This document shows positions 33,950-46,172 of a stretch of 64,000 nucleotides of DNA, in pieces (position 1 is the first letter of the stretch; each line of letters opens with the position of its first letter). The position numbers were made by a program, and so were the translations under genes. The stretch comes from Waterburya sp. GTDB taxonomy: Bacteria; Cyanobacteriota; Cyanobacteriia; Cyanobacteriales; Xenococcaceae. The stretch lies in NCBI GenBank assembly GCA_965217895.1, contig CBDCJV010000002.1, positions 864,001-928,000 on the forward strand, in the 5' to 3' direction. The notes beneath the pieces are model-generated. The model saw only the letters and a list, made by a program, of their open reading frames with translations. It was not told the origin of the DNA and searched no databases.

Positions 33950-34651
33950 TTACTGTTTATCTAGCCATTCTGTAAATAGACGCTCGATAACTTGATGACG
34001 TATTTCATTAAATTCTGGTTGGATAATTTCCTCAACAAAAATTAAATGAGCTTGTTTATCGACACGAATTGGTTTTAATACTTGAGGAGGTTTGGCTGCA
34101 AAAACAGCAGCAGAAATTTCTGGTTTTAAGTCGCTACGATTTAACAATCCTCGATAGCCTCCTCGACGGCGTAGTTCTATATCTGCAATATATTGATGTG
34201 CAATCTCCCAGAAGCTAAATTCCCGTTCTTGAACACCATAAAAAAGCTCTAAAGCTAAATCAAATTGAGGTAAAACTATTTCATAAATTACAGCTTTTGT
34301 ATAATCTAGCTGATGCTCATAAAAATAAGCCTCCGCTTTGTCTGCAAACAGGAAATTAGCTAATTTAGTCTTCAAGGCTCTAGTGTTGATTAAATATTCA
34401 AAATCTTCGGTAGTTAGACTATATTTTTTTAACCAGTTAAAAGTTGCTTCTGCACTAATCAAATTGTTTTGTAAACGAAAACTATCCGCGGCTTGCTGTG
34501 ACTCTTCCTCACTGAGAATTACTTGTTGGACTTGAGCGGTATTGTTAATAATTTTGTGAATACGAATATCTTTTAAGATCTTTGGTAGTTGACAAGAAAT
34601 TTTCAATTGCTGAATAATTTCTGGCTCGGAAATTGAAATCTTTTCTGACAT
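33950..34651 (-). CDS. PpiC/parvulin-related peptide maturation or foldase protein
   Basis: QQAADSFRLQNNL, FWEIAHQY...RRRGGYRG...LKPEISAAVF, typical of cyanobacterial type I secretion clusters. Confidence 0.8.
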   Translation of the reverse strand: MSEKISISEPEIIQQLKISCQLPKILKDIRIHKIINNTAQVQQVILSEEESQQAADSFRLQNNLISAEATFNWLKKYSLTTEDFEYLINTRALKTKLANFLFADKAEAYFYEHQLDYTKAVIYEIVLPQFDLALELFYGVQEREFSFWEIAHQYIADIELRRRGGYRGLLNRSDLKPEISAAVFAAKPPQVLKPIRVDKQAHLIFVEEIIQPEFNEIRHQVIERLFTEWLDKQ

Positions 34652-34863: not shown

Positions 34864-36891
34864 TTAAAGCTGTATTCCGCCTTTTTGTAGGCTTTTGAAG
34901 GGAGCAAGAAAAATATCGGCTAGACGACGCTGGCGAATAATAATTTCTGCTGTAGCAGTTTGTCCTGGGGTTAAGATAATATGGCGATCGCCATACTGGA
35001 TATAATTTTGGGCTAGCTGTATTTCTAGTTCGTAAAAATCTCCTTGTTCTTTATTGTCTGCGCCAGAAGCTGAAGATGGCGAGGTGGGAGTAACTCTAGA
35101 ATCAGGAGACACCCAGGTTAAAACTCCAGCAACTATGCCATAGTCTTGAAATGGGTAGGCATCGAACTTGATTTTTACTGGTAATCCAACTTTTAAAAAA
35201 CCACTTTCGCTGCTGTTCATTTTTGCCCGCAAAATTAAAGGAGAATTATATGGTGCAATCTGAGCTATGTTTTGTCCTGGCTGGACGACGGCACCAGGTT
35301 TTTGAATTGGTAATTGAAATACTGTTCCTTTAACTGGGGCATATAACACTCGTTGTTTTAACTGATAGTTTAGTCCTGAAATTATACTGCTAATTTGGGC
35401 GATTTCTCCTTTTGCAGTCTCAATTTGGGCATCGGTATTTTCAAATTCCTCTTTTGCTTTAAGTAAGCTCAAGTTATTACCCTTAACTAGAGAGTTATAA
35501 CCCCTTTGTTGTTCCTGCAAGCGTAATTCTGCTTGGTCTATTTCCGTAGAGGTCTGACGGACTAATTTCTCATAACCATTTTGTTGTTCTTGGTAGCTAG
35601 ATTTGGCTTGAGCAATTTCGGCTGCGGTGCGATTGAGGCTTTCTTTTGCTTCTTTGAATTCCCTGACCATATCCAATAAACGATCCTTAGCAATTACTCC
35701 CTGGCTGAAAGCATCCTGGTAACGAATAACTTTTTCTTGTGTCGCTTCTGTCTGAATTTGTGCCGTATTTTGCTCAGATTTACGGGCAGCGATCGCTTCT
35801 TTTGCTTGTTTTACTAAAGCAGCTTTTTCAGCCATTTGCGAGCTATAGCTAGATTTTGCTCCCAAAAAAGTCTGTTGTGCCTGATCGATCAAAGCCTGCT
35901 TTTCAAACTGTTGAGCTTGGCTTTGCTGTTCTTGCGCCCGTAATGATAGTAGCTGTTGGTCTTTTAGAGATTCCAGGCGATCGAGTTGATTTTGTTGGGC
36001 GGTCAATTTTTGCTGCTGTTGTTGTAATTCTGACTCAACAAGCTCAGATTCAAGCTTAAGTAAACTTTGTCCTGCTTTTACCTGCTCTCCTTCTTTGACC
36101 TCAATCGACATTACCGTACCGCTAACGGGAGAATCAAGATTAACAACTTTGCCCTTTGGCTCTAATTTACCCCTAGCAGAACCAACTTCATCAACTTTGG
36201 CGAATAATGCCCAGGGAACTGCTACTGCAACCAAAATCAAAGTTACATACAATAATCCTCTCAAAGAGACTCTTGGTAAAGTTTCGACCGCCTCTCGCGT
36301 CGAATCTGCCCATTCATTTTCTGCTAGAAGCTCTTGTGGTTTTTCTGGCTCGGTAATTATTTCTACTTCAGGAATTAATACTTTTTCCAATAGCCCAGGA
36401 CTGAATTGAGTATATCCTTTGTGTATAGAGCAGATAGCATCGGTTAATTCTTCTACTGGACTACCTTTTAACAAATAGCCTTTTGCTCCAGCATACAGAG
36501 CCTTTTGCAGGCGATCGCTGTCTTTGTGAGAACTAAGAACCAAAACCTTAGTATTAGGAAATCGCTGAGAAATAATATCTGTAGCTTTCACCCCATCCAT
36601 TTCTGGCATTTCTATGTCGATTAGAACCACATCTGGCTGCAATAATTCGACCTGTTCAACTGCCTGTTGCCCATTCTCCGCAGTGCCGACAATCTTTAAA
36701 TTAGTTACAGATTCAAGAGATTTGCTAATAAATTTACGGACAAAACTTTGATCGTCTACTAATAAAAGACGAATTTGAGGTTGGCTTACTTCATTAATAA
36801 TTTTATAGTTTTCTATCTTTTTCATATCTAAAGCAATTGTTGATTTTTGTTGGTTAATTACTACATTGCTAAATCGGGGTATGATTCTCAA
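34864..36891 (-). CDS. HlyD-family membrane fusion protein with N-terminal response-regulator receiver domain
   Basis: LLVDDQ, DVVLIDIEMPEMDG, GAKGYLLK; then TM, ARGKLEPKG, long coiled coil, KFDAYPFQDYG, LTPGQTATAEI. Confidence 0.9.
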   Translation of the reverse strand: MRIIPRFSNVVINQQKSTIALDMKKIENYKIINEVSQPQIRLLLVDDQSFVRKFISKSLESVTNLKIVGTAENGQQAVEQVELLQPDVVLIDIEMPEMDGVKATDIISQRFPNTKVLVLSSHKDSDRLQKALYAGAKGYLLKGSPVEELTDAICSIHKGYTQFSPGLLEKVLIPEVEIITEPEKPQELLAENEWADSTREAVETLPRVSLRGLLYVTLILVAVAVPWALFAKVDEVGSARGKLEPKGKVVNLDSPVSGTVMSIEVKEGEQVKAGQSLLKLESELVESELQQQQQKLTAQQNQLDRLESLKDQQLLSLRAQEQQSQAQQFEKQALIDQAQQTFLGAKSSYSSQMAEKAALVKQAKEAIAARKSEQNTAQIQTEATQEKVIRYQDAFSQGVIAKDRLLDMVREFKEAKESLNRTAAEIAQAKSSYQEQQNGYEKLVRQTSTEIDQAELRLQEQQRGYNSLVKGNNLSLLKAKEEFENTDAQIETAKGEIAQISSIISGLNYQLKQRVLYAPVKGTVFQLPIQKPGAVVQPGQNIAQIAPYNSPLILRAKMNSSESGFLKVGLPVKIKFDAYPFQDYGIVAGVLTWVSPDSRVTPTSPSSASGADNKEQGDFYELEIQLAQNYIQYGDRHIILTPGQTATAEIIIRQRRLADIFLAPFKSLQKGGIQL

Positions 36892-36990: not shown

Positions 36991-39981
36991 TTAATTGCTA
37001 ATGGCTAACTGTTGTTGATTGAGATGATAATACTGACCCTTACTGCTCATTAATTGCCGATGAGTACCGCTTTCTACCAGTAACCCCCGTTCCATCACTA
37101 AGATTAAATCCGCATTACGAACCGTAGATAAGCGATGGGCAATGATAAAGGTAGTTTGATTTTTGAGAATAGTTTCTAAATTGTTTTGGATAATGCGCTC
37201 TGATTCGGCATCCAAATTGCTAGTAGCCTCATCAAGAATCAATAAACGAGGCTTACCCAATAAAGCACGAGCGATCGCCAGTCTTTGCCTTTGTCCCCCC
37301 GACAGCAATCCACCCCCTTCACCAATCTGAGTATTATATTTTAGAGGCATTTCGTTAATAAATTCTGCTGCCCCAGCCAGTCTACAGGCTTCATCAATCG
37401 CAGCTTTACTTGCTTGAGGATGCCCAATAGTTAGGTTTTCGAGAATTGTTCCGCCAAACAGAAAAGTATCTTGATCGACTACTCCAGCTTGTTCCCGTAA
37501 TGAATGGAGAGAAAGGTTGTTGATGTCGTAGCCATCGATTAAAATTTTACCTTTAGTGGTACTGTACAGTCCTAAAAGTAGTTTAGAGATCGTGGTTTTT
37601 CCCGAACCACTACGACCAACTAAGGCAACGGTTTGTCCTGGTTTGACGACAAAACTAAGATTTTCTAAGGTGTTGATCTCACTTTCTAAGTTGTAGCGGA
37701 AGGTAACATCTTCAAAACAGATATGTCCTTTAATTGGTGGCAACGTAGCTAAATTAAACCTAGACAAATCCTCTTCTGTCTGGGAATTAATCACATCATC
37801 AGTACGCTCGATCGCAATTCTAATTTCTTGAAAATCATTCCAGAGGGCAATTAAGCGTTTGAAAGGACTAATTACATTTGCTACCAACATATTGAAGGCG
37901 ATCAGTTGTCCAATAGTTAATTGATTCTGAATCACCTGCCATACCCCAAATAGCAGCAAGAAGCTAGAAACCAGGGTTTCCATAACTGAGGTAGCAACCT
38001 GGATTCTTTCTCGAATCATTTTGCCCTTAAAATTGATCCGCACAGCTTCATTAATTAAATCTTCCCAACGCCACCTTACTGTCCTTTCGACTCCCATAGA
38101 TTTGATAGTGCCGACTCCCGTTAAAGCTTCAATTAAGTAACTTCGTTCAGTAGTATCAGCATTAAATATTTCGCGAGAAATTCGCACTAAAAAAGGAGTA
38201 GAAATAAAAGTAGTAACTCCAAAGATGGGAATAATGATTAAAGCCAATAAAGACATTTGCCAGCTATACCAAAACATTAAACCTAGATAAATAAAAATAC
38301 TGAGAATATCTAGAACTGTGGTGATGGCATCTCCAGTAATAAAGCTCCTAATCTTACGATTCTCGCTAATTCTGGAGGTAATATCCCCTACATAGCGAGT
38401 TTCAAAATAGCTAAGCGGTAATTGTAGAGCGTGGCTAATAAAGCCGATAATTAAGGATAAATCAAGCTTGTTGGCAGTATGATAGAGCAGATAACGTCGC
38501 AGGCTAGAAAGGGCAATGTCAAACAAGCGGAAGATAATTAAACCTATACCTACTGCTACTAGGGTTGATACGCTGCGCTGTACTACTACCCGATCTAACA
38601 GTACCTGGGTGAAGATCGGTGAGAACAAACCGACAATTTGAATCATTAGAGAAGTAACAAAAACTTCCAACAATACAAACCAATAAGGTTTTAGCAATGC
38701 CGTATATTTCCAGAGATCTTGTTTGGCTTCCCCTGCTTGTTTAAATTTCGCTGTCGGTGTCAGCAAAACAATATATCCAGTCCAGCCAGCAACAAATTCT
38801 TGACGGGTTAAAATCTTTCTGCCAATAGCAGGATCGCAGATAATTACTTGGCTTTTTGTGACCTGATAAACAACAATATAATGGTTTCCCTGCCAGTGAG
38901 CGATCGCAGGTAGTTCTTGACGCGCTAAGGCTGGTAAGTCAGCTTTACGAGGACGCACCGTAAAACCCAGAAATTCTGCTGCCCTAATCAAGCCTTTAAT
39001 GGATGTACCAGCCCGATCTACATTGGCAATATGACGTAACTGATTGACGCTAAAAGTTTTGCCCCAATATTTGCCCACCATTACCAAACAAGCGACTCCG
39101 CAGTCAGATGCACTGTGTTGCTTGTGAAAAGGATAGCGTCTTAACCGCTGTTGCCACCACTGAGTAATTCTGGTTCTGGGAGTAGGAAAATAAAATTGGT
39201 TATCCTCAACTTCAGAATCTTTTTTGGTTGTCTCAGAGGGTAAAACCTGCTCTAATTTTGCTAGAGAAATTCGATTCTGACTAGGGACTGGCTGGATAGA
39301 GGTTAGCTGGGTTCTATTTCTGTCTAGGCTATAAAGTTCTGTTGGTTCACTGACTAACCACTCGCCATTTTGAGGTAATTTATCAACTTCGTAAAGATTA
39401 CTAGGAGTGATTTTTGTGCCTGATGAATGGATAATTTCTCCTTGACGCAAAAGCCAAAGTTCTTGTTCTAATAGAGACTTTGGTAAACTACCCTGCTGTA
39501 GCTCATGTTGTTCTAAAAGCCGCAGCAAAGGCAAAATATCTTTTTTAGATTCAGCTTTACCTTGCTGATAGCGTAAAAGTAAATCTAGCTTCATTCCCTG
39601 AAGATAGAAAATAGATTCTAGCTGTTGATTTTCTGCCACTAAAGATTCCCAGCTAGAGCGATCGAGATAGCCTAACTTTAAACCTAATGAGGCACGTACT
39701 GCATAGGGTTTTAGACTGCCAAGCGGAAACAAGGTTATTTGCCCAAACCAACCTTCAGACAAAGAAATAATTAAATTGTCATCATGATCTAGTAACCTCG
39801 CTTTGCCTTCAATAATTAAATAGACTCCAGCCTCGGAAGTTTGAAAATTCCAGAATAGTTCTCCTGGTTTTGGTTCAATGATTTGTAATTTTCGCAGGCA
39901 GCTTTCTAGCTGTGCAGAGTCAAAAATATTATTTAAAGAAGAATTTAAATTTTGTTTTAAATTTTGTTTTGAAAGCACCAT
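36991..39981 (-). CDS. C39 peptidase-containing ABC exporter (PCAT) with degenerate N-terminal cNMP-binding-like region
   Basis: QHSASDCGVAC (catalytic Cys), HWQGNHYIVV, CDPA; TM domain; GRSGSGKTT, LSGGQRQR, ILDEATS, IAHRLST. Confidence 0.93.
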   Translation of the reverse strand: MVLSKQNLKQNLNSSLNNIFDSAQLESCLRKLQIIEPKPGELFWNFQTSEAGVYLIIEGKARLLDHDDNLIISLSEGWFGQITLFPLGSLKPYAVRASLGLKLGYLDRSSWESLVAENQQLESIFYLQGMKLDLLLRYQQGKAESKKDILPLLRLLEQHELQQGSLPKSLLEQELWLLRQGEIIHSSGTKITPSNLYEVDKLPQNGEWLVSEPTELYSLDRNRTQLTSIQPVPSQNRISLAKLEQVLPSETTKKDSEVEDNQFYFPTPRTRITQWWQQRLRRYPFHKQHSASDCGVACLVMVGKYWGKTFSVNQLRHIANVDRAGTSIKGLIRAAEFLGFTVRPRKADLPALARQELPAIAHWQGNHYIVVYQVTKSQVIICDPAIGRKILTRQEFVAGWTGYIVLLTPTAKFKQAGEAKQDLWKYTALLKPYWFVLLEVFVTSLMIQIVGLFSPIFTQVLLDRVVVQRSVSTLVAVGIGLIIFRLFDIALSSLRRYLLYHTANKLDLSLIIGFISHALQLPLSYFETRYVGDITSRISENRKIRSFITGDAITTVLDILSIFIYLGLMFWYSWQMSLLALIIIPIFGVTTFISTPFLVRISREIFNADTTERSYLIEALTGVGTIKSMGVERTVRWRWEDLINEAVRINFKGKMIRERIQVATSVMETLVSSFLLLFGVWQVIQNQLTIGQLIAFNMLVANVISPFKRLIALWNDFQEIRIAIERTDDVINSQTEEDLSRFNLATLPPIKGHICFEDVTFRYNLESEINTLENLSFVVKPGQTVALVGRSGSGKTTISKLLLGLYSTTKGKILIDGYDINNLSLHSLREQAGVVDQDTFLFGGTILENLTIGHPQASKAAIDEACRLAGAAEFINEMPLKYNTQIGEGGGLLSGGQRQRLAIARALLGKPRLLILDEATSNLDAESERIIQNNLETILKNQTTFIIAHRLSTVRNADLILVMERGLLVESGTHRQLMSSKGQYYHLNQQQLAISN

Positions 39982-40529
39982 TGGGAGTTTTTAAGTTGAG
40001 ATATAGATGCTGGATTAAGATCCTCGATCGCAATACCGCATTTGTCTTTGGTAAATACTTTTTGATGGTTTAGTTTTTGCTGTTTTTTGGTTGACAGTCC
40101 CATCTGCTTGAGTAAACGATTAACGTGGCGATCGCTTATCTCGATTCCTAACTCCTGCGCCAGATGCTTGCTTAACCACTTTGCCGTCCAGCGTTCAAAC
40201 GAATACCCATAATCTTTTGGGCTATTGATAACCAGTTTTTGCAGACGATTTAGATATTCATCATTTACTGTTTTTGGTCTACCCACAGAATGCTCTTGCC
40301 AAGAACTTACTTTTTCTGTTTTGGCGATCGCCATCCAATATCTGGCTGTATCTCTAGAACAACCCAAGGCAGAACAGATTTCTGTCTGGGACTGCCCCAT
40401 ACGAGCGCGAAGCACAATTTCTAGGCGACGACGCTTAGTTTCATCTAAGTGGACTGGAATATCTTCGGGAATTATCTGCGCCAGTAAAGAAGATAATTCT
40501 TTTATTTGATTGACTTCCTGTTTTTTCAT
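39957..40529 (-). CDS. Transposase-like (IS630-type) HTH DNA-binding protein lacking a DDE domain; probable regulator of the export operon
   Basis: RRLEIVL...SQTEICSALGCSRDTARYW, GRP, SPKDYGYSFERWTAKWLSKHL; overlaps the exporter start. Confidence 0.8.
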   Translation of the reverse strand: MKKQEVNQIKELSSLLAQIIPEDIPVHLDETKRRRLEIVLRARMGQSQTEICSALGCSRDTARYWMAIAKTEKVSSWQEHSVGRPKTVNDEYLNRLQKLVINSPKDYGYSFERWTAKWLSKHLAQELGIEISDRHVNRLLKQMGLSTKKQQKLNHQKVFTKDKCGIAIEDLNPASISQLKNSQWCFQNKI

Positions 40530-41103: not shown

Positions 41104-41361
41104 ATGGGAATTAATATTAACGATTTAAACCAAAAGCCTCTTGGTGGAGAATTGTTGTCTGGTTCTGAGAGCATTATGGACAACCTTCGCGTTCTTTCTG
41201 AAGAAGAATTGAGCATATCTGGTGGTGGCGGCTCCTGTGGTGGCGGCAGCAAAGGCAGTAAAGGCGGCAGTAAAGGTAGTAAAGGCGGCAGTAAAGGTAG
41301 TAAAGGCGGCAGCAAAGGCGGTGGATGTTACAATCCATGCCCCCCCCCTTGCCACCCTTAA
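41104..41361 (+). CDS. Double-glycine RiPP/secreted peptide precursor with GGSKGSK-repeat, Cys/Pro-rich core
   Basis: RBS AAGGAG upstream; leader MGININDL...GGELL...LSEEELSISGG; core GGSCGGGSKGSKGGSKGSKGGSKGSKGGSKGGGCYNPCPPPCHP. Confidence 0.88.
   Translation: MGININDLNQKPLGGELLSGSESIMDNLRVLSEEELSISGGGGSCGGGSKGSKGGSKGSKGGSKGSKGGSKGGGCYNPCPPPCHP
41242..41319 (+). repeat. Coding 21-bp tandem repeat (3 full copies + partial)
   Basis: GGCGGCAGYAAAGGYAGTAAA x3 + GGCGGCAGCAAAGGC; variation only at synonymous positions. Confidence 0.95.
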
Positions 41362-41383
41362 AAACTTTGTCCCTTGACAATAG

Positions 41384-41461
41384 GTAGCTTCAAAATACTC
41401 CATCAAAGGCGATCAATAACTTAATATTAGCGATCCTTTTGATGGAGAAGCTACTTTTTTT
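41384..41461 (+). terminator. Long stem-loop with T tract between precursor and kinase genes
   Basis: GTAGCTT...CTCCATCAAAGG...CCTTTTGATGGAG-AAGCTAC followed by T7. Confidence 0.7.
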
Positions 41462-41504: not shown

Positions 41505-42707
41505 ATGGGATTAATTCTTAGTGCTGACAATGTAGTTAATTTCTTAAAGCAGCACCAGATTTGTCCTCCAGATTTTCAACCTACTGTTCCAGTAATCTGT
41601 AAAGAGAGTAAAAACTTTAATTTAGTAGTTCAGTCGAAAGATAGTCCTAGTTTTTTAGTTAAGCAAAATCGGCTTGATAGTCAAGGGAAAACTTCAGGGA
41701 ATTTATTTAGCGAATGGTTAGTCCAAGAACTAGTCAATAACTTTAACGAGCTAGCTTCTATTCAACCTTTAATCTCGGAAGTAGTATTATTTGATCGAGC
41801 CAACTCAATTCTGGTATCGGTTTTCTACGATCAATATATCTCTATTGATGACTATTACGAGGTTCGCCAAAGCTATAATCCGCAGATAGCTCAGATGGTT
41901 GGAGCCAATTTAGCTCAAGTTCATCGCACTACCTATCAAAAGCCACATCTCAAAAAGTTTTTGAGTCAATACTTTAATTTAGAACTAGCAAAAAAACCAC
42001 CAGGATTTATTAGAAGATTAAATAGTCTTAGTCCTAGTATTTTTGGTGAAATCTGTCCTGATGGCTTAAATTTTTATAAACTATATCAACGGTTTCCTAG
42101 TCTTAATCGAGCAGTTGTAGAACTGTACGACGATCTACAGCCAGCTTGTCTTACCCATGATGACTTGAAACTAGATAACTTTATTATTGATAATAGTTTT
42201 GATGCCGATCTTGATAGCATTAAGCCAGAACAAATCAAGATAATTGATTGGGAATTGTGTTGCTGGGCAGATCCAGCAACAGATTTAGGAATGCTGATAT
42301 CTCAATATTTAGCAGAATGGCTTAATAGTTTAGTTGCTGATCCAAACCTGGAACTCGATATCATCCTCAGTATAGCTATCTGTCCTCTAGAAAAAATTAC
42401 GCCAAGTCTTAGAGAATTATTGCGAGGATATTTGAATGCCTTTCCCGAAATTATAGAGGATCGCCCTGATTTCGTAAGTAGAATTGTGCAGTTTGCAGGA
42501 ATTGGCATTCTCGATCGCTTAAGTTACCACGTTGAACATCATTATCCTTTCGACAATGATGCTCTTTGCAAACTACAGGTTGCCAAGAATTTACTTTGCT
42601 ATGCCGATAAAGGAATTAAAACGATATTTGGCACTACCGAAGCTGAGTTGATAGAACATTATAGCTCAAAAAAATTAAGTAATTTAAAGACTGTAGCCTT
42701 AAAATAA
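41505..42707 (+). CDS. APH-like phosphotransferase / peptide kinase (class V LanK-like)
   Basis: KNFNLVV, FLVKQ, LTHDDLKLDN (HxDxxxxN), IIDWE, DPATDLG. Confidence 0.85.
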   Translation: MGLILSADNVVNFLKQHQICPPDFQPTVPVICKESKNFNLVVQSKDSPSFLVKQNRLDSQGKTSGNLFSEWLVQELVNNFNELASIQPLISEVVLFDRANSILVSVFYDQYISIDDYYEVRQSYNPQIAQMVGANLAQVHRTTYQKPHLKKFLSQYFNLELAKKPPGFIRRLNSLSPSIFGEICPDGLNFYKLYQRFPSLNRAVVELYDDLQPACLTHDDLKLDNFIIDNSFDADLDSIKPEQIKIIDWELCCWADPATDLGMLISQYLAEWLNSLVADPNLELDIILSIAICPLEKITPSLRELLRGYLNAFPEIIEDRPDFVSRIVQFAGIGILDRLSYHVEHHYPFDNDALCKLQVAKNLLCYADKGIKTIFGTTEAELIEHYSSKKLSNLKTVALK

Positions 42708-42751: not shown

Positions 42752-43840
42752 ATGATTTCAGCGATCGCTTCTGCAAATCAGTCAGATTTAATAGCCCACC
42801 AGTTTAAGTTTAAACAGCAGCTAGAAAACGTTGTCGCTAAAGTGGCGATCGCCTCAAATTTTACGATCTCCTATGAAGATTTTGAACCTTTAGAAGTTAA
42901 ACCTCATCTTAAAGAGTATTTAAACCAAATCTCTCCTACAGAGCGCAATCAATATCTTGCAGCTAAACTGCAAACATATCTTTACAGTATTTTTTGTACT
43001 AGACTTAAGCCAGATCTCAATAATTCTTTGACTACTGAAGATACGACTAGGGTAGCTAATCGGATTAAAAAATGGTATAAAACCGAGTTTTACCAACAAC
43101 TTACTCAAAATAATCACGGTCAAGGTTACAGCGATCCTAATTGGTTAGTCACTAAGCAAGTAGATGATTATTGGCACGTCACCAAAAATCATCTAACCTT
43201 GCATATTAAAAATAGTCATCTTGTCGAAGCCTCAGAAAAATTATCTCTAGGAAAATTAGTGTCAATTAAAATGCCCTCAAACTTAGTAGATAGAGGTATA
43301 TATATTGCAGTGGGGGATAAAGGTTCAGCCAATAGTATAGGTGGCGATCGAGGCTCTATAATTAACCAACTGTATTTTAATGTTGACTCTCAAGGGGCAT
43401 TACGTCTGCTGGATGATTTAACTCAAACATTAAATCAAATCAAAGTTCCTTTTGATTTTAAAATTGCTTACAACGAGACAAAATTCGACGATCTTGATGC
43501 GGTGGTTTTAGAGTTTAGAAACAATGATTTCGATCTGATATATCCTGTAGTCCAAACTGCTTGTTACGAACGTCAAACTTATTTTCGCTCAGAGATCCCC
43601 TTCTTTTGCCAGTTTCTCTCCCCTGGTTTGGGGTTGGCAGAAAAACCGCGATCGCCAAAATTCGCACGAGAGAATATCGGGCAACACTATTGCGGTATCA
43701 TCGCCCAGGCTTTAGTCGAAATATGGCAGCAAAACAATTTAATTGAAAATAAATTAGATTATGTCCTAAATTACTTATCCGCAGGGGGGGTAGATATCGA
43801 ACGTCTTTATCTTAATCCTCATTTACAGAGCAATGATTGA
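42752..43840 (+). CDS. HopA1-family protein (class V LanY-like), apparently degenerate active site
   Basis: NHGQGYSDPNW, YIAVGD, LYFNV, PFDFKI, PGLGLAEKP, LYLNP. Confidence 0.8.
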   Translation: MISAIASANQSDLIAHQFKFKQQLENVVAKVAIASNFTISYEDFEPLEVKPHLKEYLNQISPTERNQYLAAKLQTYLYSIFCTRLKPDLNNSLTTEDTTRVANRIKKWYKTEFYQQLTQNNHGQGYSDPNWLVTKQVDDYWHVTKNHLTLHIKNSHLVEASEKLSLGKLVSIKMPSNLVDRGIYIAVGDKGSANSIGGDRGSIINQLYFNVDSQGALRLLDDLTQTLNQIKVPFDFKIAYNETKFDDLDAVVLEFRNNDFDLIYPVVQTACYERQTYFRSEIPFFCQFLSPGLGLAEKPRSPKFARENIGQHYCGIIAQALVEIWQQNNLIENKLDYVLNYLSAGGVDIERLYLNPHLQSND

Positions 43841-43929: not shown

Positions 43930-44634
43930 ATGCCTATTGAACCTTGGTTTCCCCTTGTTGTCTATTATGCAGACTTAGAAGATGCCTCAAAACATAAAGA
44001 GTCTCTAGTATCTACAATTCTCAAGCTGGAAAAAGAAAATGGTTATCAAAGAAGAATCGATGCTGATATTGCCTGGACTGGAGATTTTCACGGAGTAGGA
44101 CATATTCATGAACATCCCAATTTTACTTGGATTGTTGAGCAAATGGAAGCTCACATTCTCCGTTATCTTGAAGAGTTGGGGATTGATTTAGACAAAATAG
44201 AATTGTATATTCAAAGAGCTTGGCCCATTGTGTCTCGTGAAAATCAAGCAATTCCTCCCCATGCTCATCACAATGCTCACGTCAGTGCCGTATACTATGT
44301 ATCCATTCCTGAAAGTGGTACTGCCAAATCTGGTGCGTTTACGATTTACAATGATGCGGGGATGAACGAAATTCTTGAAGGTATAGGAGACGAGTATACT
44401 AATGCCATTAAGAAAAGAAACCCATTCAACTATGAAACAGGATACTATGCGCCTAAAGAAGGAAGAATATTAATATTTCCCTCAAAGCAACGTCATGGCG
44501 TAGAAGCCAACGAAACTGGAGAGATCAGAATCTCATTATCTTTCGATGTTGTCATTACCTCTTCAGAAAATGGAGATCCTGGATTGCATGAATTTTTATC
44601 GCCCCCACCAAGCCAGTGGAAAAAATTTGGATAG
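43930..44634 (+). CDS. 2-oxoglutarate/Fe(II)-dependent oxygenase-like protein (TIGR02466-type)
   Basis: PHAHHNAHVSAVYY, PKEGRILIFPS, HGV, RISLSFD. Confidence 0.85.
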   Translation: MPIEPWFPLVVYYADLEDASKHKESLVSTILKLEKENGYQRRIDADIAWTGDFHGVGHIHEHPNFTWIVEQMEAHILRYLEELGIDLDKIELYIQRAWPIVSRENQAIPPHAHHNAHVSAVYYVSIPESGTAKSGAFTIYNDAGMNEILEGIGDEYTNAIKKRNPFNYETGYYAPKEGRILIFPSKQRHGVEANETGEIRISLSFDVVITSSENGDPGLHEFLSPPPSQWKKFG

Positions 44635-45830: not shown

Positions 45831-46172
45831 TCAGGTTTGCGGTTTAGATAAAGCTTGTAATTCCGACCAAGAATAGTGAGCGAGAATTTCATTTTCTCCC
45901 TGGGCTTCTCCTAAAACTTCCATCGCTTTTTGTTCGAGTTCTTCTAGATCTTCTCCTACTACATCACCAACTGCACCGCCAACTACCGCACCAGCGATCG
46001 CCCCCAATACCTTACCAGTTTTGCCGCCAATTAATTTACTACCAATCGCAGCACCAGCTACACCGCCACTTACCGCGCCAATTCCTGTTTCTATGGCGTT
46101 ATGCTTCGGTTGCTGAGTGAGTTCTTGTGTTTTTTGCTCTTGCCTTTCTTTATTCTTGTTTTCTTCGTTCAT
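45831..46172 (-). CDS. Glycine-zipper domain protein
   Basis: GIGAVSGGVAGAAIG...GAIAGAVVGGAVG. Confidence 0.7.
   Translation of the reverse strand: MNEENKNKERQEQKTQELTQQPKHNAIETGIGAVSGGVAGAAIGSKLIGGKTGKVLGAIAGAVVGGAVGDVVGEDLEELEQKAMEVLGEAQGENEILAHYSWSELQALSKPQT

Follow-up and report, generated by a model that had tools for sequence, protein, structure and literature searches.

The window analysed here, a stretch of 64,000 nucleotides from Waterburya sp. (contig CBDCJV010000002.1), contains a run of four genes encoding a precursor peptide, a kinase, a LanY/HopA1-like protein and a 2-oxoglutarate-Fe(II) oxygenase, from which the export genes diverge (Table 1). Close relatives of this cluster are found in Pleurocapsa-, Waterburya-, Xenococcus-, Acaryochloris- and Thermosynechococcaceae-type cyanobacteria.

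Table 1. Features of the locus, with positions counted from the first letter of the window
Feature	Position	Strand	Basis and remarks
PpiC-like protein	33950..34651	-	PF13145; TIGR04500 below cut-off; co-located with export genes in relatives
HlyD adaptor fused to response-regulator receiver domain	34864..36891	-	TIGR01843 above cut-off; PF00072
Peptidase C39 ABC transporter	36991..39981	-	PF03412, PF00664, PF00005
Helix-turn-helix protein, IS630-like HTH type	39957..40529	-	~60% identity, precedes transporter in relatives
Precursor peptide gene	41104..41361	+	85 codons; 41-aa double-glycine leader and 44-aa Gly/Ser/Lys core with Cys/Pro tail
21-bp tandem repeat	41242..41319	+	TRF; encodes GGSKGSK three times and a partial unit
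Long stem-loop and T run just 3' of precursor gene	41383..41456	+	Folding energy
LanK-like APH-family kinase	41505..42707	+	PF01636, E 5e-10; motifs HDDLKLDN and IIDWE intact
LanY/HopA1-like protein, degenerate lyase site	42752..43840	+	PF17914, E 1e-44
2-Oxoglutarate-Fe(II) oxygenase	43930..44634	+	TIGR02466 / PF13759; H111-x-H113, H189, R200

The precursor, which has no Pfam or NCBIfam match, shares 74-92% identity with its relatives over ~38 residues of the leader, and a leader search of the genome returned it as the sole match. The double-glycine motif LSEEELSISGG (glycines 40 and 41) is the processing site common to these relatives, the GGGG run at this motif leaving one or two residues of doubt on the exact position. 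An earlier, sequence-only reading of the locus had placed cleavage after the first GG, which taken literally is residues 14-15, a site that is not conserved in relatives and was rejected, but the 44-residue core that it proposed is the one obtained by cleavage after residue 41. Its count of 8 Ser, 7 Lys and 4 Cys in this core was reproduced on recomputation, and the core also has 17 Gly, a single Tyr and no acidic residue, with three occurrences each of KGSK, GSKGSK and KxxK. That the KGSK units come from a 21-bp repeat varying purely at synonymous sites was likewise confirmed, by TRF (period 21 bp, 3.7 copies, score 128) and by codon comparison of the three full units, the fourth having diverged to GGSKGGG. 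The stem-loop downstream (-33.6 kcal/mol, z -7.3, with 0 of 200 shuffles equally stable), which a simple terminator scan did not pick up, probably stabilises the precursor transcript or causes its partial termination.

By its family assignment, the C39 transporter would remove the leader and export the peptide. The receiver domain of the HlyD adaptor sits at its N-terminus and the transporter shows a weak N-terminal cNMP-binding match, in view of which export may be signal-controlled. The helix-turn-helix protein upstream of the transporter is likely a regulator and not a transposase. Domain searches of the cluster genes revealed no phosphatase, no immunity gene and no methyl- or polyamine-transferase, and no cyclase, decarboxylase or reductase was found among them. 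A 113-residue glycine-zipper protein (45831-46172) lies just outside the cluster beside a cation efflux gene, with no link to it in relatives.

The kinase has the intact HxDxxxxN and DWE catalytic motifs of a class V LanK. It matches NF038156 (LxmK) with an E-value of 3e-20 at 73 bits, far under the equivalog cut-off of 315, and weakly matches the LxmK structure 9DK1_A. No second LanK or second APH-family kinase was found in the genome, which is 99.9% complete.

The sequence-only reading named the adjacent kinase and 2-oxoglutarate oxygenase and overlooked the HopA1 gene lying between them, whose product, when modelled (pLDDT 83), finds its best structural match in LxmY (9DK3_B, E 3e-17). Kinase and HopA1 protein together make up the class V LanK/LanY dehydratase as described in the text of Liang et al. 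(PMC9486802), in which the phospho-lyase normally converts phospho-Ser to dehydroalanine. Since LanY normally strips the phosphates, its presence would at face value refute a lasting phospho-Ser product. What makes such a product plausible is that the lyase of this cluster is degenerate, and its sequence suggests that the peptide likely stays phosphorylated. In CaoY, R187A nearly abolishes elimination, leaving traces of dehydration, K219A abolishes it, R229Q impairs it and Y236 is conserved; without Arg187 or Lys219, it is phosphorylated peptide that accumulates (PMC9486802). These positions were mapped by aligning the LxmY chain 9DK1_B with intact cyanobacterial LanY and counted from the printed alignment, with the LxmY-CaoY numbering offset of 2 fixed by V132/V136/L165/F169/Y171 (PMC12141560). 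Where active lyases have R, K, R and Y, within the motifs VRIYFN, FKVL and RYDSGVLY, the window protein has Q206, K237, D247 and E254 (INQLYFN, FKIA and DLDAVVLE). Three of the four residues expected of a class V LanY (Arg187, Lys219, Arg229 and Tyr236) are thus lost.

This loss extends to a clade with an SH-aLRT support of 100 in a quick LanY tree. Among 92 LanY sequences at least 39% identical to that of the window, a set that includes near-duplicates and combines 79 database matches, filtered to at least 300 residues, with the non-duplicate loci, Arg187 is present in 1, Lys219 in 51, Arg229 in 27 and Tyr236 in none. No member has all four, and the catalytic base is missing from 41. By comparison, all four residues are kept in 27 of 40 other cyanobacterial LanY, in 20 of 23 distant family representatives and in two HopA1-LanC fusions, and their retention in the distant proteins and the fusions implies that the loss in the clade is derived. 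Complementation by another lyase was considered and rejected, the 99.9% complete genome having a single PF17914 match and no second LanY; LanC was the sole other lyase class covered, and the empty LanC search is weak evidence because the control search was empty too. Although its active site is degenerate, the clade LanY is under purifying selection and not decaying, with dN/dS values of 0.22-0.38 (7 pairs) versus 0.12-0.20 (5 pairs) for intact LanY. LanK and LanY depend on each other for solubility (PMC9486802; PMC12141560), which would explain why a dead lyase is retained as a scaffold. The clade also has conserved residues of its own (Q206 in 87, D249 in 88 and N308 in all 92 sequences), which could mean a new activity instead of none and, together with the Lys219 equivalent retained in the window, leave room for slow or novel lyase chemistry.

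A broader survey suggests that the state of the lyase goes together with the type of core. To gather LanY loci, the genomes of 61 relatives, 61 members of the family and 401 of the class were searched, with most matches fetched; all full-length class-search matches were taken, six weaker or fragmentary family-search matches were left out and 11 duplicate loci were dropped. All four sites were readable in 138 LanY domains, 102 of which had a precursor within 5.5 kb, and 51 of these 102 loci are without the key Arg of the lyase. The core contains at least 15% Lys plus Arg at 41 of the 51 Arg-less loci versus 4 of the 51 Arg-bearing ones, and the median hydrophobic fraction is 0.03 in the former versus 0.39 in the latter, Arg-less cores consisting mostly of (SK)n, SKK, RS or poly-Arg repeats and Arg-bearing ones being hydrophobic and containing Ser/Thr. 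Eight of the ten Arg-less loci that have no basic core belong to the clade with the oxygenase. Where the next ORF could be scored and was not the oxygenase, LanY is followed by an aldo/keto reductase at 27 of 45 Arg-bearing versus 0 of 37 Arg-less loci, and at 21 of these 37 the C39 transporter follows directly. The reductase, which comes right after an intact LanY at L041, L044, L049, L054, L057, L089, L094, L159, L172, L189, L195 and other loci, is plausibly a dehydroalanine reductase, and if so Family 1A peptides would acquire D-amino acids through it.

On a FastTree phylogeny of 130 kinase rows, the Arg state changes 6 times, against a mean of 43 when shuffled, and most Arg-less systems cluster in one large region; L191, an apparently separate case nested among intact systems, has an SK core. 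Loss of the Arg is one main event, with perhaps a second, and not 51 independent ones, and the Fisher p of 3e-14 for its association with a basic core is an overstatement because there are just 6 changes in 130 rows. Other architectures were seen along the way. Fused kinase-LanY genes (780-880 residues) without the Arg occur at L098, L127, L130, L132, L133, L135, L139, L152-L154 and elsewhere, with a C39 transporter and double-glycine precursors of the protamine-like, poly-Arg/Ser kind as neighbours. A clade in family f7 (L045, L085, L086, L088, L165, L171, L174-L178, L183-L185 and L187) keeps Arg187 and has Gln or Glu in place of the catalytic Lys; no precursor was found within 5.5 kb, and several of its loci continue with a 4HBT thioesterase-like gene. 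A tandem of two kinase/LanY pairs, each degenerate in its own way, surrounds three acidic, Asp-rich precursors at L079 (7565-14240).

The third enzyme is the oxygenase, whose H-x-H...H and Arg set is invariant among the homologues compared and which is the most constrained gene (dN/dS 0.05-0.17). Of the 13 degenerate LanY loci in the family, 12 have the oxygenase alongside, and no high-scoring match lies elsewhere; in the wider set it is found at 16 of 18 clade loci versus 1 of 120 others, that one lying inside a clade locus. A structure search returned the uncharacterised 3BVC and 2RG4 as top matches, followed by generic 2-oxoglutarate oxygenase folds, with no characterised relative among them. 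Homologues of about 50% identity or less stand alone: a match was present in 64 other genomes, and none of the 20 loci fetched from these has a kinase, LanY or precursor beside it, which argues that the oxygenase was recruited to the clade and that it may have a non-peptide substrate. These stand-alone genes (L099-L118) are single-copy TIGR02466 oxygenases with the H-x-H...H metal set, conserved in several cyanobacterial families and standing in unrelated gene contexts.

The only residues present in the cores at all 16 oxygenase loci are Lys, Tyr and Gly. Asn (8 of 16 loci) and Asp (6 of 16) were rejected as the conserved target, and so was Pro, found at 8 of 16. The earlier proposal that kinase and oxygenase would yield phospho-Ser and hydroxy-Lys or hydroxy-Pro consequently survives in its first two parts, which are plausible given the degenerate lyase and Lys at 16 of 16 loci, but not in its third as a conserved role. 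In the 22 cores from oxygenase loci, the residue before Lys is Gly 117 times and Ser 8 times, versus 16 and 71 times, respectively, in 39 Arg-less oxygenase-free cores. When cores with at least three Lys are considered, GK is more frequent than SK in 16 of the 17 from oxygenase loci, the window being the exception, whereas SK is the more frequent in 14 of the 24 that are Arg-less and oxygenase-free. A (Gly-Lys)n core thus replaces the usual (Ser-Lys)n core in the oxygenase-bearing clade. Twelve of 21 clade cores have at most two Ser/Thr and four (L039, L068, L069 and L072) have none, versus 0 of 38 outside the clade. A hidden, Ser-rich second precursor was rejected as an explanation for the Ser-free cores, with one match per genome in the 10 genomes checked, although fragmented assemblies could hide more; precursor P0086 was not found in genome G082. 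The clade kinases of Ser-free cores retain HxDxxxxN and DWE. L031, a clade locus without the oxygenase in a complete genome, has a core with 17 Ser/Thr in 46 residues, while L076 has a clade LanY, no oxygenase in the 2.1 kb downstream and a precursor off the contig. The kinase loop reads HxDL[K] in just 2 of 16 clade kinases, those of the window and L031, which are also the two loci read that have SK/KS dipeptides in their cores; the other 14 have Thr, and Lys is usual outside the clade.

The oxygenase is hence predicted to hydroxylate Lys in the peptide, and the simplest account is that in clade relatives it may supply the Lys hydroxyl that the kinase then phosphorylates, with Tyr (16 of 16 oxygenase loci) as the main alternative phospho-acceptor. 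The window is a mixed case, combining Ser-Lys repeats, a Lys-type kinase loop and the oxygenase, which points to phospho-Ser plus hydroxy-Lys. From known LanK/LanY biochemistry, the kinase would bind the leader and phosphorylate hydroxyl side chains, leaving lasting phosphates on the core serines, the lyase having lost three of its four catalytic residues and being kept as a scaffold. The oxygenase would hydroxylate lysines of the peptide, the new hydroxyl serving as the kinase acceptor in (Gly-Lys)n relatives without Ser, to give phospho-hydroxylysine, and a zwitterionic product would leave the cell through the C39 transporter, which would also cleave off the leader. This scheme as a whole (a dead-lyase kinase system, lasting phospho-Ser, predicted hydroxy-Lys and an exported zwitterionic peptide) is one in which we place slightly better than even confidence. 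Its least certain extension, by analogy and only tentative, is that the extracellular peptide would act in the matrix or in adhesion by binding Ca2+, anionic sheath or mineral surfaces. Peptides rich in Gly, Lys and Tyr with alternating phospho-Ser recall the adhesives of caddisflies, sandcastle worms and mussels. The most far-reaching version joins all these elements: a class V dehydratase turned phosphopeptide writer, an oxygenase making its own acceptor (Lys to hydroxy-Lys to phospho-hydroxy-Lys), a window peptide that would carry phospho-Ser and (phospho)hydroxy-Lys, and a silaffin-like convergence on a mineral-binding or underwater-adhesive matrix peptide. In this joint form it is doubtful.

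Several other explanations have to be weighed. One concerns function and is compatible with the chemistry just described: phosphate would mask a polycation while it is being made and exported, the active form outside the cell being a dephosphorylated, cationic antimicrobial or nucleic-acid-binding peptide. C39 export is typical of bacteriocins, and the poly-Arg and RS-rich cores of Arg-less systems would be expected to bind nucleic acids if unmasked. However, membrane-active peptides are not almost free of hydrophobic residues as these cores are (median 0.03), acidic or Asn-rich cores occur in the clade (L035, L039 and L079) and the cluster has neither phosphatase nor immunity gene, which makes masking unlikely. 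Ordinary class V dehydration, in which Ser becomes dehydroalanine and Cys or Lys adds to it to form lanthionine or lysinoalanine, would fit the LanK/LanY fold and gene order, the retained K237, the 8 Ser and 4 Cys of the core and the purifying selection on LanY. It is nevertheless improbable in view of the three lost residues, the absence of the base itself from 41 of 92 clade members, the many clade cores with at most two Ser/Thr (12 of 21), the lack of a cyclase or reductase in the cluster and of a second APH protein, and the empty LanC search, with its equally empty control.

A third possibility is that the kinase phosphorylates Tyr-rich tails, plus Ser where present, and that the oxygenase targets Tyr, another residue or a small molecule. 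The occurrence of Tyr at every oxygenase locus and the stand-alone oxygenase homologues speak for it, as does the precedent of a cyanobacterial peptide kinase preferring Tyr (PMC12639078). It leaves unexplained the switch from SK to GK that accompanies the oxygenase, there is a single Tyr in the window core and Tyr tails occur with intact lyases too, so that it is distinctly improbable. Finally, the lyase might have been repurposed, with a beta-hydroxy-Lys phosphorylated by the kinase and then eliminated by the altered LanY to give dehydrolysine, or with some other new reaction. This would agree with the clade-specific conservation of Q206, N308 and D249, the strict linkage of the three enzymes and the Ser-free Lys repeats. 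However, neither the base (K in 51 of 92) nor a phosphate-binding Arg (R in 27 of 92) is conserved and the clade LanY evolves faster than intact ones; moreover, loss of the Arg is common to many oxygenase-free systems and so preceded the oxygenase. Repurposing is for these reasons very improbable.

The likeness to diatom silaffins, which had been the starting point, fared less well than the chemistry. Silaffin R5 does contain GSKGSK, as had been stated (PMC3806462). By chance the motif arises in 0.5% of 100,000 shuffles of the core and in 7 of the 210 possible orders of its 7-residue unit, so that for a single motif fixed in advance the match would not be trivial, but this one was picked post hoc and all three copies derive from one duplicated unit. 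GSKGSK is absent from all 21 other clade cores and from 17 further precursors with the same leader. The KxxK spacing, of which the window core has three instances, is not conserved as it is in silaffins, at least two being found in 1 of 21 clade and 2 of 17 same-leader cores. Orthologous cores thus conserve no S/K repeat motif, the result named beforehand as counting against the idea. The motif does occur in 4 of 29 other precursor-search matches (P0099, P0105, P0106 and P0108), which have different leaders and were retrieved by core likeness. Separately, P0104 and P0106 have GSKG-repeat cores behind a different leader (LEERIAP or LEQRIAP), which suggests similar peptides in another system or phylum.

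The resemblance to silaffin-1A of Cylindrotheca fusiformis lies in Ser/Lys/Gly repeats (PMC4557024; PMC3806462). As described in the text of these sources, all Ser of native silaffin-1A are phosphorylated, as is its trimethyl-hydroxylysine, polyamines are also present and the Lys modifications appear essential for activity at acid pH (PMC4557024). Phospho-Ser and delta-phosphorylated hydroxylysine make it zwitterionic, and the chemistry predicted for the window overlaps with this in part. It differs in being eukaryotic, in its processing at RXL sites and in needing polyamine and methyl groups (PMC4557024; PMC3806462). A strict silaffin equivalent, templating silica via GSKGSK and KxxK, is accordingly the least probable of all the alternatives and hardly credible: the motif in common with R5 and with four further precursors and a partial match in predicted chemistry stand against its absence from the clade and same-leader cores, a cluster without enzymes for Lys methylation or polyamine transfer and a genome with no match to a diatom-type silicon transporter (PF03842). 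The peptide is not a silaffin; it would be an analogue in charge pattern, with no homology, and may resemble silaffin as a self-assembling, mineral-binding zwitterion.

Among ribosomal peptides, phosphorylation is reported to be rare and known from a handful of cases (PMC12639078). From the Arg-less half of the sampled loci, with its mostly basic repeat cores, one would expect secreted phosphopeptides to form a large and so far unexamined family within a group assumed to make dehydro-peptides. For the branch that bears the oxygenase, the predicted product is peptide-bound phospho-hydroxylysine, which provides the uncharacterised TIGR02466 family with a substrate that can be tested. If the phosphopeptide-writer reading is true, the locus would represent a three-gene kit; peptide-level enzymes for phospho-hydroxylysine were found in no literature searched. 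If the products bind minerals, cyanobacterial surface adhesion or calcification could be approached genetically through these clusters, whose enzymes could also serve to make silaffin-like peptides. In the same literature, most subscription journals lying outside its scope, we found no degenerate cyanobacterial LanY, no product of these clusters and no hydroxylysine with a 2-oxoglutarate enzyme in a RiPP.

How does the locus relate to known systems? HYKK/AGPHD1, a eukaryotic APH-domain kinase, phosphorylates 5-hydroxylysine, showing what the fold is capable of, but its substrate is the free amino acid and its role catabolic. Cyanobacterial Family 1A comprises 570 peptides in 183 clusters, with products unknown (Eyles et al., 2021; PMC8153245), and corresponds to the 'type-B LanA' of Liang et al. 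(2022; PMC9486802). The window shares with it a cyanobacterial origin, a HopA1 protein beside a phosphotransferase and a short double-glycine precursor with a variable core that has no conserved Ser/Thr/Cys, and one leader profile finds its precursor together with those of both intact and degenerate loci. The HopA1 gene between kinase and oxygenase makes it a member of the Family 1A kinase/lyase clusters. Both papers assume dehydration as the chemistry, and in the main and supplementary text covered, figures being outside this scope, neither mentions loss of the lyase site, the oxygenase or an association with basic cores (PMC8153245; PMC9486802). With class V CaoK/CaoY and LxmK/LxmY (PDB 9DK1-9DK3), the window shares an APH-type kinase and a HopA1-fold partner, but it has lost the Arg187, Arg229 and Tyr236 equivalents, uses double-glycine/C39 export and has no cyclase gene in the cluster and no second APH protein in the genome. 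A direct precedent, by analogy, for the logic of a dead elimination step is phospeptin, in which EmbM, a LanM-type maturase whose elimination residues are mutated, makes a linear, poly-phosphorylated product (Paoli et al., 2022; PMC9259500). EmbM is a single, class II-derived protein that acts on Thr, with no oxygenase and a different core, whereas the window kinase is of APH type and separate from the lyase-fold protein. By gene content the locus belongs to a catalogued family, it departs from class V at the lyase site, and it is the predicted chemistry that would set it apart.
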